47,135 nucleotides of DNA from a virus (lineage: Duplodnaviria > Heunggongvirae > Uroviricota > Caudoviricetes). The translations under genes and the position numbers were made by a program. Numbering within the stretch: the stretch's first letter is position 1; every line of letters starts with the position of its first letter. Shown here in pieces: positions 3,308 to 42,554 of this stretch. Location: IMG/VR virus record IMGVR_UViG_2541047877_000007. One strand, 5' to 3'. The notes under the pieces are model-generated. The model saw only the letters and a program-made list of their open reading frames with translations, did no database searches and had not been told where the DNA came from.

Positions 3308-3883
3308 CTACGGCAGTGCTGGCCATTCAATATCCTGTGCAGTTGACGTATCAACACGGTTCAGCAATACCCGATACTTTTTCCATGCTTCCAGCAACGA
3401 GATTTCTTCCTCCGTTGCAATTTCCAGATCTGCAGCATCCTGAAGCGGCGCAATATGCTCACTGGCTACCTGCATCAGGTTGTTTTTTGTTTCTTCCGCC
3501 TCCCGGATCCGGAACAGTTTTTCTGCTTCCGTATCCTTCACCCAGGCTGTGCCGTTCCACTTCTGAAACTCCCCTTCCGGGGATAACCAGGTGACATTTT
3601 CCGGTAATGGGCCAAGTTCAGAAATAAATAACGCGTCGCCGGAAGCCACGTCATAGACGGTTTTACCCCGATGATCTTCAACGAGATGCCACGATGCCTC
3701 ATCACTGTTGAAAACAGCCACGAAGCCAGCCGGAATATCTGGCGGTGCAATATCGGTACTGTTTGCTGGCAGACCTGTATGAGGCGGAATATATGCGTCA
3801 CCTTCACCAATAAATTCATTAGTTCCTGCCAGCAGATTATAAATTTTTATGGTCCGTGGTTGTTCACTCATTCTGAATGCCAT
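3308..3883 (-). CDS. tfa: tail fiber assembly protein Tfa
   Basis: 191 aa, N-terminus [24 protein letters not shown] matches recalled lambda Tfa; start overlaps the stf stop. Confidence 0.9.
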
Positions 3884-7539: not shown

Positions 7540-8235
7540 TCTTACCAGCCGCGCCCTAACAGGCGCACACGATCTGACATTTGCATCCAACTTCGTTACT
7601 TACGGCCCGTAAACGGGCTGCCCGGATAGGGAATCGATAACTGCTCTCCCATTTTATCCTCTTCAAGCTGGTGCTTTATGTAATCCTGTATCTTCGCCGT
7701 GTTCTTACCCACTGTATCGACGTAGTACCCTCTGCACCAGAACTCCCTGTTCCTGTATTTGAATTTCAAATCACCAAACTGCTCGTAAAGCATCAGACTG
7801 CTTTTCCCTTTCAGATATCCCATAAACCCGGATACGCTCATTTTAGGCGGGATCTCCACAAGCATATGGATATGATCTGCACAGCATTCAGCTTCCAGAA
7901 TCCGTACGCTTTTCCACTCACACAGCTTTCTCAAAATACTGCCTATTGCTCTACGCTTCTCTCTGTAGAACACCTGTCTTCGGTATTTTGGCGCAAAAAC
8001 TATGTGATATTTACAGTTCCATCGGGTGTGCGCTAAGCTCTTTTCGTTCCCCATTGGGACCCCCTTTTGATTTCTTGTTTGACACTTGCAGTTGCCAGAC
8101 CGCAAGGTGTTTTAACAAATCAAAAGGGGTTTTAATAACTGGCTCAAAGCTGAAAGCTTTCCGGAACCCCCAGCCTAGCTGGGGGTTTTCTGTGCACAAA
8201 AAAGGCGTCATTTCTGACGCCCGTTCTGGGTTATA
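7540..8235. mobile_element. IS200-type insertion sequence (IS200/IS605 family) between J and lom; boundaries approximate
   Basis: About 700 bp carrying only a Y1 transposase gene; end region has a 13-bp inverted repeat (ccccttttgattt / aaatcaaaagggg) overlapping the transposase RBS plus two further hairpins (8166-8186, 8204-8221), matching the known IS200 left-end organisation. Confidence 0.6.
7596..8054 (-). CDS. tnpA: IS200/IS605-family Y1 (HUH) transposase TnpA
   Basis: 152 aa from ATG 8054; HUH motif (HIHMLVEIPP) and typical IS200 TnpA size. Confidence 0.85.
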   Translation of the reverse strand: MGNEKSLAHTRWNCKYHIVFAPKYRRQVFYREKRRAIGSILRKLCEWKSVRILEAECCADHIHMLVEIPPKMSVSGFMGYLKGKSSLMLYEQFGDLKFKYRNREFWCRGYYVDTVGKNTAKIQDYIKHQLEEDKMGEQLSIPYPGSPFTGRK

Positions 8236-28765: not shown

Positions 28766-29036
28766 GATGTTACCGTAGTATGTGAGTATCCATCGAATAG
28801 ATACCAAGCAAAAAAGCTCCCGAAGGAGCCTTCATTTTCACTTTTTTAAATCCAACGACAGACGGCTGGCATTTAAGTATTGTGAAATATTATCAAATGT
28901 AATCATCATTGATTTACAAAAGATACATTTTGCCCCGAAAGGATTCATGTCAGAAACATCAAAAGATGATGTTCTATACTGGGAACCATGACAACACGGG
29001 CATCTAAAGTGAATATGGTTTGTAATATTGTCTACC

Positions 29037-29249
29037 TCAAAGCGCCACTACATGAACAGCGGCAGGACCTTTAGGTCCGTTCTCAATACCAAATTCAACT
29101 TCCTGATTCTCAGTTAATGTTTTGAAATCGTTGCTCTGAATTGCTGAGAAATGGACAAACACATCTTTGCTGCCATCTTTCGGCGTGATGAAACCAAAAC
29201 CTTTTTCAGGGTTAAACCATTTCACTAAACCAGTCATTTTGTTAGACAT
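29037..29249 (-). CDS. cspI: CspA-family cold shock protein
   Basis: 70 aa with RNP motifs KGFGFI and VFVHF; symbol from position next to the spanin genes as in Qin. Confidence 0.85.
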
Positions 29250-29612
29250 AATTATTACCTTTTGAAGAAATTAGCCCTTGGGCAGAATGGTCCGAAAAAA
29301 AATATCAGAGAGAAAAACCAACAAGGAAATCTCAAGAGGTACAAATAATAAAATTATAACAATGACTGCTTCAGATAAATTTGTAACAAACCAGAACACC
29401 ATTAACGCATGATTAACCACCCATAGCAAGGATTACTTTTGTAAAGAAAAACACAGCAATGAAAGAATAGCTTTATTTATTAATAATAACGTGTCATTCT
29501 GATTAAGACCTTTTATCTTACCCTTAAGATTTCAGGAATTTTGGCTCATGGAAGAGTCCTTTTTATTTAAATTTTACATTCCGCGATGTAAATGTTCCGA
29601 TTTAATATTACC

Positions 29613-31640: not shown

Positions 31641-31921
31641 GAGATTGTGGTGCTTTTTGTGGGAGTCATCCACTTACGCACTTTGTTTTGCCATGCCAGC
31701 AGTTAGCTTCTGCTGTAAAACTATTCATGCAGCAAACCTGCACTTCACCACAATGGTTAGCATACTTTTCCTGATTAAGATTTTGCCAAATATGCTAGCC
31801 ATTGTTTCATGTATTGGACCTCCTTACTTTTTATTAAAGAGATCCAATATTCACTACTCTGTCCGTATCTCTACTCAGGCATCAGCCTTCTTCGTTATCG
31901 TATACAGACGAGCGATGAATT

Positions 31922-32137
31922 TTAATCAGTAATGATGACATTTGCTGCTGCAGGACCTTTAGCACCACTCTCTATAGAGAAGGTAACCTTTTGACCTTCA
32001 AATAAGGTTCGATAATTATCATTCTGAATCGCAGAAAAATGCACAAACACATCTTTACTACCATCAACAGGAGAAATAAAGCCGAAACCTTTATCAGCGT
32101 TAAACCATTTTACTAAACCAGTCATTTTATTTGACAT
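31922..32137 (-). CDS. cspB: CspA-family cold shock protein
   Basis: 71 aa with KGFGFI and VFVHF motifs; symbol from Qin-like order. Confidence 0.8.
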
Positions 32138-32437
32138 TCTACATTCCTTAACTTGAGCCTTTCGGCATAAATGGTTTGCATAACAGAAACGACTTCGTAC
32201 TTAATTGGAGAGACTCAAAGAAGGAATAAGTGAATAACACCTGAAATGAGAACTGCTTTAGTAAACTACTTCGTATATCGTCTGTTCTTCAAACCGACGC
32301 AATCATTAACGCATAGTTGAACATATGAAGCAATGTTTATTTTAGACATCCAGCCATCTTCAACCCCATCAAAAAACTATAGCTTTCTTCAGGAACGTGT
32401 GTATAGTGCGCCAAGTTATCAGTATTAAGGAATTTTT

Positions 32438-35602: not shown

Positions 35603-35633
35603 AAATAAAAACAAAAACCCGCCGAAGCGGGTT
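35603..35633 (-). terminator. rho-independent terminator of the hok transcript
   Basis: aacccgc-cgaa-gcgggtt hairpin followed on the minus strand by a long T-run, about 70 nt after the hok stop. Confidence 0.7.
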
Positions 35634-35701
35634 AAGTGCGGGTGCGTTGAGGATGCCTGCCACATCAGAGGTGGCGAGGGATTTCTCCCTCGCCGGGTCT
35701 C

Positions 35702-35857
35702 TTACTCCTCAGGTTCGTAAGCTGTGAAGACAGCGACCTCCGTCTGGCCGGTTCGGATTCGTACCTCGCAGAGGTCTTTCCTCGTTACCAGTGCCGTCAC
35801 TATGACGGTTAAACAGATGACGATCAGGGCGATTAACATCGCCTTTTGCTGCTTCAT
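35702..35857 (-). CDS. hok: Hok/Gef-family type I toxin
   Basis: 51 aa MKQQKAMLIALIVICLTVIVTALVTRKDLCEVRIRTGQTEVAVFTAYEPEE; single TM helix and conserved Hok C-terminal motif. Confidence 0.9.
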   Translation of the reverse strand: MKQQKAMLIALIVICLTVIVTALVTRKDLCEVRIRTGQTEVAVFTAYEPEE

Positions 35858-35914
35858 AGCCTGCTTCTCCTTGCCTTTCGGCTCGTAAGAGGCTAACCTA
35901 CATGTGTCTAGCAT
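35702..35914 (-). CDS. mok: mok-like reading frame (N-terminally extended frame sharing the hok stop)
   Basis: In-frame ATG 57 nt upstream of the hok start, mirroring recalled chromosomal mok/hok annotation. Confidence 0.5.
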   Translation of the reverse strand: MLDTCRLASYEPKGKEKQAMKQQKAMLIALIVICLTVIVTALVTRKDLCEVRIRTGQTEVAVFTAYEPEE

Positions 35915-35960
35915 GAAATTGGCCTCAGATTAATGTTAAGCGTCTTGCAGGACGCGTAAT
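35860..35960 (+). ncRNA. sok: expected position of a Sok-like antisense RNA (approximate)
   Basis: Inferred only from hok/mok organisation; ends and promoter not identified. Confidence 0.25.
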
Positions 35961-36531
35961 GTTAACTGGGGCTTTTCTCTATCTGCCTTTGGTGTTCATG
36001 CCCGAGGCAGATAGCCTCAAGCACCCGCAGCCATTCTACTTAACTACCGTTACCTCGCCAATATGAAATCAGTCAGAAAGGCGATCCATAAGAACAATAG
36101 CAAGACAATAAATCGCCATTACAGCCGTAATAGCCAGCGCACATTTGAGAACCAGCACCACAACCTCCTGTATTGGACGTAGACCAGTCCTGATGAATAT
36201 GAGGCTGTCTCGTCAGTGATTCAATACAACTATTGGGTATAGTTTCTCTGATTTTTTCTGTGGAAATGGGGCACAACCACTAGTCACCACCAGCACTTCT
36301 TTTAATACGCAAAGTCCGACACAAGCTAACCTTCTAGTCCGCTTTGAGCGAAAAACAGCCATAATTTAGTGCCACGTATATAATGATAGAGCTATTCAAG
36401 CTAGCAATTCACATGTAAAAATTCAGAGGGTAGAAGCACATAGTTATAAATGTTGGCTCCATCGACAAATTGCGGTCTCAAGTACATTTATTAATGTTGC
36501 CCCCGCATTAACAAATCATCAAGGTGACGAC

Positions 36532-38319
36532 ATGGACGATATTAATATCAGCCTCGACGAACTTAACACTATTGATTTATCCCCCTTAATCCAGAGTAAG
36601 CTGCCAGTTACCTGCTTTGATATCACAAAGTATCTTTCTAGCCTAGGTGATGGAAGAGCGGAGATAAGACTGCTAACCCATATTTGCGGTTTTCACTTTC
36701 GTCCCGAAAATCCACAGGTACCATTTGGTCCGTGCTTTCAAAGCAGCCAAGGTAGATCTGCAATTCCGGATGACATTAACGGGTTGTCGCTGGAGGTACT
36801 TTCTCAATTTTGCCCGACGATAGAGCTACCCGAACTTCAAGCTCGTATTGCTGATACACTTTGGGTTCGTAAAATTGGTGGAATCCGTTTTCCTTTGCTG
36901 GCAGTCCGTGCTTATTATGCGTCCAGTATAGCTATTATGACATCGCAAGGGACGTGGGTTAGTGCTTTAGAACGCCTAGAGCGTGCGCTTAGGCTGTGTT
37001 GTTTTTTTCGAAAGAATACTGATTTCAGGGATGAATTTGATCAGCTTTCGGCACATCTACTAGCAGAGTATGAACGTACCAGAGAACAAGGCGATTCACC
37101 TTATCCGCTGCGACTCCTGCAACTCGATATCGACTGTAAAGTGAGTGAGCCATCTTTTATTGCCCAGGAACTCCTGTTTCTGACAAAAAACTATCTGGCT
37201 CAAAAATTATTTTCATTTGCCGTCGATGCCTGTAAAACCGCAATCACGATTGCGAATAGGTGCTGTGACAGAGATACACAGTTTGAATTCTGGCGGCTTC
37301 TTGCCGATACACATCTGGAAGAGTCAAAATTCCAAGATGGCGGTATGATTTCGGCAGCCTGCATGCAGAATGCTATTGAAGCACTGGCTAATATTCCAGG
37401 AACCCGAATAGAACGTCTTGCGCTGTATGAAGAAATGCGTGATTACCAAATCGAATCCCGTCACCAGATGTCTATCCTTCAGTCTCCCCCTCAAGATATT
37501 AGTGAGATTGTCCATCAAGCCAAGAGTCGGGTAGTCGGAAGAGATATGTTTGATATGGTTTTCAGACTTGCGATGCTGGTCTGTCGGCCAACCAGCATTG
37601 AGAGACTTAAGGCTCAAGCAATAGAACAAAAGGCCAACAGCATAGCTTGGATGTTTGGATCAACACATATTGATCATGAGGGAATGACACTTGCTCGCAT
37701 ACCCGCAGGATTGGGGATTGATGATGCAAATGGGGCAGTTATTTGGCCCATAATGATGACGAGAATGCGTATCGACCATGAGTTGGCAGTAGCTGGGCAA
37801 ATTATTCCTGCTACAGATGAGATCACAATGAAATATCCAATCTCGGAGGCGTTTTTTCGCGATATGTTCATCAATCATCCCTTCATCCCGTTTGGGCATG
37901 AAGAGTTTTTCATCAAGGGTATGGTTTGCGGTTTCAATGGAGATTTTATGACGGCATGCCACGTGTTGATTCCCCAGATCGAAAATAGTCTGAGATATGT
38001 GGCTAAAATTAAAGGTGAGGAACCATCGCAGCTTCACGGGGACGGTTCGCAAGAGCGAAATGGACTCAAGGGATTACTAGATAATCCACTGATTATTGAA
38101 GCTTTCGGCGTAGACATAATTGGCAATCTTCAGGCCTTACTGGTAGATAAAATCTATGGTGATTTACGAAATCAACTAGCTCACGGATATGTGCCTGCCG
38201 GTTACTACAATCAACCTCCCTGCATTTTTGCATGGTGGCTTGTATTGCACATTCTAATGAACCCTACGGCGAGATACTGGCAAGCCACTTATGGCCAAGA
38301 GAGTGAGGCTCAGACTTAA
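36532..38319 (+). CDS. orphan 595-aa protein with C-terminal HEPN-like R-N-x-x-x-H motif
   Basis: AAGGTGA RBS 4 nt upstream of ATG; motif DLRNQLAHG at residues 544-552 (38161-38187); visibly lower GC than flanking phage genes; no other family motif recognised by eye. Confidence 0.8.
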   Translation: MDDINISLDELNTIDLSPLIQSKLPVTCFDITKYLSSLGDGRAEIRLLTHICGFHFRPENPQVPFGPCFQSSQGRSAIPDDINGLSLEVLSQFCPTIELPELQARIADTLWVRKIGGIRFPLLAVRAYYASSIAIMTSQGTWVSALERLERALRLCCFFRKNTDFRDEFDQLSAHLLAEYERTREQGDSPYPLRLLQLDIDCKVSEPSFIAQELLFLTKNYLAQKLFSFAVDACKTAITIANRCCDRDTQFEFWRLLADTHLEESKFQDGGMISAACMQNAIEALANIPGTRIERLALYEEMRDYQIESRHQMSILQSPPQDISEIVHQAKSRVVGRDMFDMVFRLAMLVCRPTSIERLKAQAIEQKANSIAWMFGSTHIDHEGMTLARIPAGLGIDDANGAVIWPIMMTRMRIDHELAVAGQIIPATDEITMKYPISEAFFRDMFINHPFIPFGHEEFFIKGMVCGFNGDFMTACHVLIPQIENSLRYVAKIKGEEPSQLHGDGSQERNGLKGLLDNPLIIEAFGVDIIGNLQALLVDKIYGDLRNQLAHGYVPAGYYNQPPCIFAWWLVLHILMNPTARYWQATYGQESEAQT

Positions 38320-38416
38320 AGTGAATAAGTTTACGAAGTTGGCACTTCCGGATGCATGTCCATATGAGTTGAGGCGATTTGGTTAATAAGGTTGAGTGCT
38401 GCTGAAATTATTCGAT

Positions 38417-38440
38417 GTCCGCTTTTGGCACAAAGCGGAC
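38417..38440. terminator. hairpin between convergent genes (possible bidirectional terminator)
   Basis: 9-bp perfect stem gtccgcttt / aaagcggac with 6-nt loop, between the 595-aa ORF and the minus-strand 133-aa ORF. Confidence 0.45.
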
Positions 38441-38537
38441 AACCACGCCAGATCTACCCTGTGCCATGAAAAATGAGAATGTCAATTCACTCCTGAACTA
38501 ATGCTTTTTAATCTAGTAACGTCTAAAATACCTAACA

Positions 38538-38939
38538 TTATCCCTGATAAAATGCCAGTATGCGCTGCATAACTTCACTCATCCGGCACTCGCGACAGAT
38601 TATGTTTAGGCGACTGTCGTAGCGACGTATTTCTCCATCAGGTAACGACCAGATAAGGTCCGGATCAACCACAGCTGTTTTCTTCACCTTTGCCCTCGAG
38701 AGTTTTTTGCGGGCGTTTTGCCAGTCCTTACGCGCCTGTTCAGACGGGAATAACCCGTAGCCGGAGTTGTATACATCGCCACTGGCTACCAGCTCTCTGG
38801 CAAGAACGCTCATCAGATATCTAGTCGCACCTGTTTTAGCTTCCAGTTGCCGTAACGTCTCACGACCGCTCTGGCGCACGAGTTCCACCACCTGCCCTTT
38901 AATTTTTTCCCGCTCTTCTTGTGTAAAAACTTTTGCCAC
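38538..38939 (-). CDS. hypothetical protein downstream of the replication initiator
   Basis: 133-aa ORF, basic, no motif recognised. Confidence 0.45.
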   Translation of the reverse strand: MAKVFTQEEREKIKGQVVELVRQSGRETLRQLEAKTGATRYLMSVLARELVASGDVYNSGYGLFPSEQARKDWQNARKKLSRAKVKKTAVVDPDLIWSLPDGEIRRYDSRLNIICRECRMSEVMQRILAFYQG

Positions 38940-38979
38940 AAGTCCCCCTTAAAATTACCTCATGACCTGAAATCAAAAC

Positions 38980-39999
38980 TTATCCTCTGAAACCAGGCGG
39001 AATTTCTGTATCCGGTTCAGAAATATGATTAACACAACGCTGTACAGGTGAACGCCCCAGGCGGATGACCAGTTCGTCCCATTTTTCGCGGAGCTTTGAC
39101 GGGCTCATGATGTTTTTTACCCAGAATGGATCCCGCTGTACCCGACCAAACATTTCACAAATTTGTCTGTGGCTTCTGCCATCCAGCATCCGCATTGTGC
39201 GCACATCATTGGCCCAGACAGTCCAGTTAGGCTCTTTTGGTCGCATGATCTCGCCATCATCACTGGCGGCCTGTTCGTAGAGACCCACGATCCGCCCCCA
39301 TATCCACTGCGCACACGCCAGATCCTCCTGGCTACCCCACTGGCGTTTTTTCGCACTAAACACAACTGCGCCAGGGTGCCGGATTAAAAAATCCTGTTCA
39401 GCCGTCTGCGGGTCCGGTTGCGAAGCTTCCGGACGAAAAGTGTTTTTATTCTCTGTAGTAATCTCTGTTGTATTCTCTGTAGGATCATCGGGCCATTTTG
39501 ACCCGATGACATTGGGTCGTTTTGAACCAATGGAGCGTTTCATTTTGACCTCTTCCATCGTGTCATTTTGACCTGATGGAGCGGCGCATTTTGAACCGAT
39601 GGATTCGCTCAATTTGCCATCATCTAAAAGCTCGCTTCCATAGTTAATCGTGTAGAAATTGGTCATATCGCGCTTTGATTTATTGAGCTTTTCACAACGC
39701 AAAAGCCCCAGCGTTTTCAGACTTGCAAACGCGCGCTTTAACGTTGACTCTGACCAGAATGGGAACTGTTCCAGCCATTGTTCCGTTGTGTTGTAAATCC
39801 AGCGAACACCATCACATTCCATGCCGGAATTGGTATCTCTCAACCAGTAATGCAACTGCTGCAACACAATGGCTTCATTTAAGCCAATCTTCATCGCAAG
39901 CTGTGTGTTTATAACCAGTGGGCGTTCAGCAAAAAGAAGGCTCATAATTCCATCCAGCTTTTTGTTGGTATTGCTGTCGATACGCAAGTTTGAAAGCAA
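38980..39999 (-). CDS. replication initiator (lambda O-like role) containing the origin iterons
   Basis: 339 aa; the gene carries an internal array of direct DNA repeats encoding a repetitive linker (SIGSK.. repeats); start codon uncertain (internal ATG at 39945 also possible). Confidence 0.7.
   Translation of the reverse strand: MLSNLRIDSNTNKKLDGIMSLLFAERPLVINTQLAMKIGLNEAIVLQQLHYWLRDTNSGMECDGVRWIYNTTEQWLEQFPFWSESTLKRAFASLKTLGLLRCEKLNKSKRDMTNFYTINYGSELLDDGKLSESIGSKCAAPSGQNDTMEEVKMKRSIGSKRPNVIGSKWPDDPTENTTEITTENKNTFRPEASQPDPQTAEQDFLIRHPGAVVFSAKKRQWGSQEDLACAQWIWGRIVGLYEQAASDDGEIMRPKEPNWTVWANDVRTMRMLDGRSHRQICEMFGRVQRDPFWVKNIMSPSKLREKWDELVIRLGRSPVQRCVNHISEPDTEIPPGFRG
39455..39625. repeat. candidate replication origin: iteron array inside the initiator gene
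   Basis: Five to six copies of c(a/g)ttttga(a/c)c-N-gatgga at about 23-bp spacing (39494-39610), preceded by three copies of tctctgt(a/t)g. Confidence 0.6.
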
Positions 40000-42068: not shown

Positions 42069-42554
42069 AACTGTGGTGATTTTAAGGATACCACCTCGCC
42101 TGACGTGGTTAAAAGCAGGCACACAACACGAAAGCGCACGGCGAAGTTCGTCTCACTGTACGGTGTCGTCAAATTTAATTCGACCGTGCGCTTCCGGTTG
42201 TGGCAACCCGCGAAATGGCGCGGCGATAAGTATGGCGGGGTTATTCCTTCCCCGTTGAGGACACCGAGTTGTCAGGTTGACCATACGCTTAAGCGACAAC
42301 CCCGCTGCAACGCCCTCTGTTATCAATTTTCTGGTGACGTTTGGCGGTATCAGTTTTACTCCGTGACTGCTCTGCCGCCGTTTTTAAAGTGAATTTTGTG
42401 ATGCGGTGAATGCGGCTAAGCGCACGCGGAACAGTTAAAACCAAAAACAGTGTTATGGGTGGATTCTCTGTATCCGGCGTTAATTGTTAACTGGTTAACG
42501 TCACCTGGAGGCACCAGGCACTGCATCACAAAATTCATTGTTGAGGACGCGATA

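Follow-up and report, generated by a model that had tools for sequence, protein, structure and literature searches.

The gene analyzed here lies in a 47,135-nucleotide stretch of viral DNA (Caudoviricetes; IMG/VR record IMGVR_UViG_2541047877_000007), referred to in its full length as the window, which is a Qin-like lambdoid prophage of Escherichia coli inserted beside rspB/ynfA. The gene occupies a variable cargo slot of the prophage, and its 595-amino-acid (aa) product combines an N-terminal DUF7380 domain, a TPR-like solenoid and a C-terminal HEPN domain with a conserved, predicted catalytic motif (Table 1). Judged by its sequence, the protein is a member of the large known family PDC-S39 and not new in kind. 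We consider it moderately probable that the gene encodes a single-polypeptide anti-phage sensor-effector of the abortive-infection type, carried as prophage cargo.

An earlier annotation of this DNA (the original prediction) described the gene as an orphan with an undescribed function, recognized no family motif in the product beyond the HEPN-type one, and left its N-terminal 450 residues unassigned. These statements fail, as two Pfam domains and a PADLOC model match the protein, the N-terminal residues comprise DUF7380 and the TPR-like helical solenoid, and the family is annotated in RefSeq, counts thousands of clusters and is listed by DefensePredictor. The DUF7380 domain contains the conserved motifs ELxARxADxLW (approximately aa 100–111) and ERALRL (aa 149–155), and DUF4209 (PF13910, EMARD_N) covers aa 484–573 (34.0 bits against a cut-off of 22.3, E = 3.2e-8, profile positions 2–88 out of 89). 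Two PDC-S39 hidden Markov models (HMMs) of PADLOC match with very low E-values, PDLC05012 (8.4e-103, aa 43–581 on profile positions 54–602 out of 615) and PDLC05011 (2.6e-102); PADLOC gave PDC-S39 only, neither ApeA nor HEC-08. The identical protein is named "DUF4209 domain-containing protein" in RefSeq. NCBIfam yielded no match for the protein, PHROGs yielded families of unknown function only, searches of PDB by sequence and by a profile of the C-terminal part gave chance matches only (E > 0.1), and the sequence matched no TPR profiles.

A profile search against 1.84 billion representative proteins retrieved 7,335 clusters (at 50% identity) with E ≤ 1e-3, 2,801 of them with E ≤ 1e-30; among the best 150 clusters all proteins were 554–673 aa long, and nearly all aligned over almost the full length. 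PDC-S39 members were found in Gammaproteobacteria, Alphaproteobacteria, Cyanobacteria, Verrucomicrobia, Chloroflexi, Nitrospirae, Bacillus and Alicyclobacillus, and the pattern PQ[IV]ENS[LVI]R[YH], used as family-defining, retrieved 157 loci. In 2013, a survey placed DUF4209 within the HEPN superfamily under the family name "C6orf70," predicting it to be catalytically active and describing it as fused to TPRs in bacteria and found in operons related to restriction–modification (RM); the bacterial family was named there as the source of eukaryotic C6orf70/ERMARD (Anantharaman et al., PMC3710099). This survey was the only literature found on DUF4209 or on C6orf70 together with HEPN, and none was found on DUF7380, WP_000340970.1, or ERMARD together with HEPN.

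The only match to R[NHQ]xxxH in the 595-aa protein is RNQLAH (aa 546–551, within DLRNQLAHG). Since so loose a pattern could match by chance in a long protein, conservation is the real test of this motif. An alignment of 35 full-length homologues, with identities as low as 24%, shows R546, H551 and G552 unchanged in all 35 and N547 replaced by His only; R[NH]xxxHG is kept in 81 out of 81 family open reading frames (ORFs) from 81 genomic loci. The HEPN-type motif R546/N547/H551 of the original prediction is thus both present and conserved. A second element invariant in that alignment, the LIPQIENSLR helix, probably lines the active site.

The full-length AlphaFold2 (AF2) model has a pLDDT of 89.7 and includes the TPR-like solenoid. 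Used as a query in the fold search, it was swamped by TPR and designed-repeat matches and was uninformative on the HEPN domain; aa 400–595 were therefore modeled separately for that search. The separate model matches HEPN four-helix bundles, namely, those of archaeal and Bacillus HEPN proteins, Csm6, the HEPN domain of AbiA, sacsin and Las1, with RnlA and MtlR among the lower-ranked matches. It is an all-alpha, four-helix up-and-down bundle, in which the Rx4-6H motif, with a polar residue after the Arg, stands at the start of the last core helix. The HEPN reading, which the original prediction would have abandoned had the C-terminal region lacked such a fold, is confirmed by this independent structural test on a predicted model. 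Since each chain carries one HEPN domain and the HEPN site is composite, RNase activity would need a homo-oligomer.

The location of the gene agrees with a role as cargo. According to blastn, backbone homology to phage Evi stops at position 36351 and resumes at 38417, and the cassette between these points is replaced by different genes between the same flanks in other prophages: an acetyltransferase and a regulator in Evi itself, relBE, ydfV and flxA in Qin of K-12, QueH with or without a methyltransferase in ST131-type strains, an alpha/beta hydrolase in O157:H7 and O121, and a DUF5677 protein, an S-adenosylmethionine (SAM) methyltransferase with DUF7167, or hypothetical genes in other E. coli (slot counterparts compared: locus L009, 15347–16738, and locus L010, 4053–5455). 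In E. coli lambdoid prophages generally, the interval from hok/sok to the DUF977/replication genes is a hotspot for cargo, which bears out the earlier suggestion of an acquired accessory gene, as well as its placement between the hok locus and the replication module, at the start of the region equivalent to nin.

With an identity threshold of ≥99%, the ORF was found in 152 out of 5,426 complete genomes of E. coli, always on the chromosome, and every listed match reached ≥99.7%; the exact protein sequence occurs on at least 1000 contigs. A few E. coli copies (in NZ_CP070048.1, NZ_CP025842.1, NZ_CM143724.1, NZ_CM192145.1, and NZ_CM149572.1) are interrupted by an insertion sequence (IS), either IS4 or an IS3-family element (IS1203), or are truncated, leaving a fragment annotated as "DUF7380," which suggests that the gene has been inactivated repeatedly. 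The E. coli protein is matched at 100% identity by one encoded on a 5-kb contig labeled "MAG: Bacillota bacterium" (JAEWTL010000124.1, locus L015); this is most likely a binning contaminant of a metagenome-assembled genome (MAG) rather than a true occurrence in Bacillota.

Some relatives of the gene lie in accessory sites of phages or prophages, a recurrence that the original prediction had proposed to check, while several others are lone insertions among housekeeping genes. An 81%-identical copy lies at a prophage end in Citrobacter, a 39%-identical one between the Q antiterminator and holin genes of an Enterobacter kobei prophage (a lambdoid moron site), and a 24%-identical PDC-S39 member between gpA and gpQ (the tin/old hotspot) of the P2-like phage vB_EcoM-569R9. 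The P2 gpA–gpQ hotspot is a reservoir of anti-phage systems (Rousset et al., 2022). In other phyla, the gene stands directly after hsdM–hsdS, before a type III methyltransferase gene, or directly after GajA–GajB.

No partner gene is conserved among the PDC-S39 neighborhoods compared. The ORFs of about 160 aa downstream of the Vibrio and Aeromonas homologues were considered as partners and rejected, being mutually unrelated and having no convincing Pfam match. A linkage to MADS was likewise discarded: mad3, mad8 and mad2 are the commonest PADLOC matches among the neighbors, but these are cross-matches of generic ABC/SMC-type ATPases and a type I methyltransferase. In an Armatimonadota MAG (locus L064, 9830–13626), two PDC-S39 paralogues of 622 and 687 aa stand in tandem, both keeping PQxENSxR and RNxxxHG. 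An 83%-identical copy in Brenneria bubanii has upstream of it (locus L016, 339–1331) a gene for an ArdC-type anti-restriction protein (ArdcN and a zincin-like metallopeptidase), and is probably carried by a conjugative element rather than a prophage.

In about 30 cyanobacterial loci, the PDC-S39 protein is approximately 640 aa long, being extended at its C-terminus by about 45 aa (consensus ..WVKFAGMFKDDPLFDEFVEDM..), and the next ORF, of 140–144 aa, overlaps its stop codon by 4 bp and scores as a PIN domain (for example, L007, 10001–12348; L045, L047, L048, L051, L052, L054, L057, L060, L061, L066, L069, L071, L072, L074, L078, L081, L083, and L090). By sequence, the tail resembles a VapB-type antitoxin joined to the HEPN protein, and the downstream ORF a VapC toxin.

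This toxin–antitoxin (TA)-like arrangement is among the observations that would fit another use of a competent HEPN RNase, namely, service to the mobile element as an addiction or stabilization toxin, or as a weapon or regulator when the prophage is in conflict with a plasmid, a satellite or a host defense system, giving no protection against lytic phages. Consistent with such service, both hok/sok, which adjoins the gene, and relBE, which fills the slot in K-12, are TA modules, the Brenneria copy neighbors an anti-restriction gene of a conjugative element, and the relative from the P2 hotspot gave no protection on the panel used. We nevertheless regard this role as unlikely: the E. coli cassette lacks an antitoxin or partner gene, none is conserved throughout the family, and, since copies persist on at least 1000 contigs and in 152 complete genomes, the resting protein is tolerated without an inhibitor. 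Moreover, members directly adjoin RM and Gabija operons, and two independent defense-prediction methods flag the family.

Eukaryotic ERMARD has been predicted to process RNA at the membrane of the endoplasmic reticulum (ER), and the conservation of the C6orf70/ERMARD branch across eukaryotes, along with the many bacterial homologues standing alone among housekeeping neighbors, could point to a similar function here, that is, housekeeping-like or phage-life-cycle processing or degradation of particular host or prophage transcripts, or to a non-catalytic binder of RNA or a ligand, like MtlR. However, unlike a housekeeping gene, the E. coli gene is patchily distributed, always prophage-borne and sometimes broken by an IS; it is directed opposite to the lytic transcription units, and the family occupies known anti-phage hotspots, while a non-catalytic binder is at odds with the complete retention of the catalytic dyad. 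We hold these functions, taken together, to be quite improbable.

Anti-phage defense remains the reading that we prefer. The family has been flagged by three earlier computational studies, and its defense function is plausible but unproven. PADLOC candidates (PDCs) were derived from their embedding in BREX and DISARM, as well as in type I RM systems, PDC-S39 being a single-gene candidate; in the literature, PDC-S39 was otherwise found only in lists of PADLOC output. In DefensePredictor (PMC13092281), E. coli DUF4209 proteins with lengths of 595 and 602 aa fall under "Predicted novel defense gene" with log-odds of 4.3 and 7.4, and its table of screened transcription units contains neither. At the P2 hotspot, "DUF4209" ranks 13th among the most common cargoes (193 loci), and the DUF4209 gene of E. 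coli S88 was cloned as pFR103 and labeled "Putative HEPN" (Rousset et al., 2022). The "HEPN-TPR" system pFR83 of the same study was examined as a further relative and set aside, since it has an N-terminal HEPN motif and a different sequence.

Several observations weigh against a defense role. The plasmid pFR103 appears in Table S2B, "additional tested systems," and not in the validated Table S2A (Rousset et al., 2022); it is the sole family member that could be traced to a test, on a small panel and with no detected phenotype, and is 24% identical to the 595-aa protein. No experiment on that protein or a close homologue was found in the literature. The homologues in Vibrio cholerae, Aeromonas and Pseudomonas are lone insertions or lie in a tiny island, and, since many homologues stand alone among housekeeping genes, the association with defense islands is not universal. 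The low GC content noted by the original prediction is real (44.7% in the ORF vs. the window mean of 49.1%, with GC at third codon positions of 0.40, below the 0.45–0.68 of the nine other large ORFs compared), but the deviation is modest, 22% of equal-sized segments being as low or lower. Finally, the conserved hydrophobic WW helix (aa 562–594) is a borderline membrane segment in some members. The single-gene defense or abortive-infection function originally proposed stands as the best reading, whereas defense itself is unproven, one distant member having been tested and not validated.

The WW helix raises the question of whether the family is anchored by it in the inner membrane and acts there, for example in superinfection exclusion or in membrane-proximal RNA cleavage, instead of being a soluble sensor of the cytoplasm. 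Kyte–Doolittle maxima (19 residues) of 1.6 to 2.1 fall on this helix in several members, the P2-hotspot DUF4209 proteins are labeled "1 TM" in the table of Rousset et al., and eukaryotic C6orf70 has a transmembrane (TM) segment. In the 595-aa protein, though, the helix is below the usual threshold and has a conserved His or Arg in the middle, and AF2 packs it confidently as the last long helix of the domain that matches HEPN; membrane anchoring therefore seems to us very improbable.

Under the preferred reading of a defense protein, the following mechanism may be proposed. The gene would have a promoter of its own that drives it against the lytic operons, allowing the lysogen to make the protein. 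At rest, DUF7380 and the TPR-like solenoid (aa 1 to approximately 400) would hold it inactive, and the same region would recognize a product of a foreign phage that infects the cell. The C-terminal HEPN domain is predicted to be a metal-independent RNase, with R546 and H551 as the active residues helped by the PQIENSLR helix. As HEPN sites are composite, activation would need pairing: two HEPN domains would pair or re-pair, creating or exposing the composite site between protomers. Cleavage of tRNA, rRNA or mRNA would then arrest translation and abort the infection.

A bolder extension, which we find possible but rather doubtful, is that the PDC-S39 proteins are true one-protein immune sensors, in which the DUF7380/TPR-like solenoid, on recognizing a phage protein, unlocks the HEPN RNase, that they are the direct ancestor of eukaryotic ERMARD, and that the cyanobacterial branch is a two-effector variant. 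In this variant, the sensor with the antitoxin-like tail would also release the PIN toxin as a second RNase.

The protein compares with known systems as follows. It shares with PDC-S39 the length of about 600 aa, the collinear architecture, RNxxxHG and PQIENSLR, and the single-gene organization, and differs from it in nothing structural; specific to it is its location in a Qin-like lambdoid prophage, in a cargo slot with hok/sok on one side and the replication genes on the other. The P2-hotspot protein of pFR103/vB_EcoM-569R9 is likewise a PDC-S39 protein (E = 8.5e-85) with the same two Pfam domains, encoded by a single gene in a hotspot, and its BLASTP match to the 595-aa protein is collinear (E = 1e-23), but it is 24% identical, has RH instead of RN in the motif and comes from the gpA–gpQ site of a P2-type phage.

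The nearest mechanistic precedent is HepS from the Salmonella prophage Gifsy-1 (PMC13043305; Sargen et al., Nature 2026), a tetramer that is inactive at rest; siphovirus tail-tip proteins trigger it, upon which it cuts the anticodon loops of tRNA and the infection is aborted. Like the 595-aa protein, it is a single HEPN protein with Rx4H, encoded with no partner gene in an accessory region beside lambdoid replication genes and tolerated at rest; however, HepS belongs to another, far smaller family, defined by standalone HEPN proteins that are shorter than 250 aa, devoid of added domains and retrievable from HepS by PSI-BLAST, whereas the 595-aa protein has DUF7380 and the solenoid, so the relation is by analogy, not membership. 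Tha (tail-activated HEPN anti-phage system) of Staphylococcus aureus prophages is described as a HEPN defense activated by structural proteins of incoming phages (PMC11087260); the likeness noted here is functional, both being prophage-encoded HEPN proteins, while the host of Tha belongs to a different phylum.

The toxins of HEPN-MNT systems (PDB: 7ae2, 5yep) differ in being about 130–140 aa long and neutralized by an adjacent MNT, and their identity to the protein is 6–7%; no MNT nucleotidyltransferase gene was found in or beside the cassette, whose neighbors are hok/sok and DUF977. The validated single-protein defenses HEC-08 (DUF3644 with a Zn-ribbon), DS-11 (CBS with HEPN) and ApeA resemble the protein in uniting a HEPN effector with a regulatory or sensor domain in one polypeptide, but represent other HEPN families with other accessory domains. 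Defense is lost upon mutation of the Rx4-6H histidine in HEC-08 or of the predicted HEPN catalytic residues in DS-11.

Table 1. Features of the cargo gene, its product and its surroundings in the window (positions are those of the window).
Feature	Position	Strand	Details
Variable cargo cassette	36352–38416		2,065 bp; DUF4209 gene with its own 180-bp upstream region, no other gene
PDC-S39 gene	36532–38319	+	595 codons, ATG start; RefSeq WP_000340970.1; DUF7380-solenoid-HEPN protein
DUF7380 domain (PF24098)	36541–37029	+	aa 4–166; 119.3 bits vs. cut-off 27, E = 2.1e-34
TPR-like alpha-helical solenoid	36781–37467	+	aa 84–312, 11 helices; proposed sensor or scaffold
HEPN domain	37732–38313	+	aa ~401–594, including DUF4209 (aa 484–573)
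Invariant helix LIPQIENSLR	37966–37995	+	L479, Q482, E484, S486, R488; on the long helix before the motif
Predicted catalytic motif RNQLAHG	38167–38187	+	R546, N547, H551, G552; Rx4H HEPN signature
Shine–Dalgarno sequence AAGGTGA	36521–36527	+	4 nt before ATG; CAAGGTGA conserved in the copies from Citrobacter and Brenneria
Best sigma-70 promoter candidate TTCAGA-N17-TATAAA	36422–36450	+	read from sequence
Promoter of the original prediction, TTGCGG-N16-TAATGT	36470–36497	+	weak
hok/mok/sok type I toxin–antitoxin locus	35616–36026	-	left neighbor, complete, with terminator; outside the cassette
hok terminator-like site	35616–35633	-	terminator scan
DUF977 gene	38538–38939	-	right neighbor, ending the replication/early-right block and converging with the cargo gene; outside the cassette
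Hairpin	38416–38441		10-bp stem, 6-nt loop; start of the conserved right flank

The coordinates and the Shine–Dalgarno sequence confirm a 595-aa ORF with a good ribosome-binding site, alone on the plus strand. The upstream region of about 170 bp accompanies the gene into the unrelated contexts of Citrobacter and Brenneria, where -35- and -10-like hexamers align with TTCAGA (36422–36427) and TATAAA (36445–36450). We prefer this pair as the candidate promoter of the gene; the promoter scan omitted it, as position 6 of its -10 hexamer is A. The hexamers TTGCGG and TAATGT, originally proposed as a possible promoter, do lie at the positions given for them, but match the consensus in three out of six positions each, were not called by the scan, and include a -10 that is not conserved.

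The cargo gene converges with the early-right and replication genes and runs counter to Q and the lysis genes, which is the arrangement expected of a lysogen-expressed moron. To its right, the DUF977/replication genes span positions 38538–39999 on the minus strand. To its left, the hok ORF (annotated in RefSeq as hokD) is accompanied by sok at 35852–36026 on the minus strand (Rfam, 116 bits). The gene is not bracketed by a hok terminator, as had been claimed, since the terminator-like site lies beyond the hok locus as seen from the gene, some 900 bp away from the start of the ORF. The convergent hairpin on the other side exists and is stable (approximately -18 kcal/mol), but belongs to the conserved phage backbone resuming at 38417 and not to the cargo; since it has no U tract on either strand, it is not a canonical terminator, and it was not among the calls of the terminator scan.

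Between sok and the cargo boundary, about 330 bp of conserved backbone (36027–36362, minus strand) hold small ORFs, one of which, within 36073–36276 on the minus strand, encodes a Cys/Gly-rich peptide ending in ..MCAGYYGCNGDLLSCYCSYGSPF; a weak terminator-like hairpin lies at 36115–36134, and RefSeq has no annotation across 36027–36362. Elsewhere in the prophage, Rfam matches above the gathering threshold are found at 3342–3540, 8064–8187, 29010–29395, 31906–32298, and 42329–42380; these are IS009, the Hfq-binding small RNA (sRNA) STnc490, two cspA-type thermoregulator leaders, and DicF.

If the defense function is validated, a very widespread family, comprising thousands of clusters in Proteobacteria, Cyanobacteria, Verrucomicrobia, Chloroflexi and Firmicutes, would join the proven single-protein abortive-infection RNases, and the cargo slot of Qin-like prophages described above would be shown to be a defense hotspot of E. 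coli, clinical lineages included. Since the family is the bacterial counterpart of ERMARD (C6orf70), a conserved ER protein of eukaryotes, the trigger and the RNA target of PDC-S39 would also give the first biochemical handle on this eukaryotic protein.

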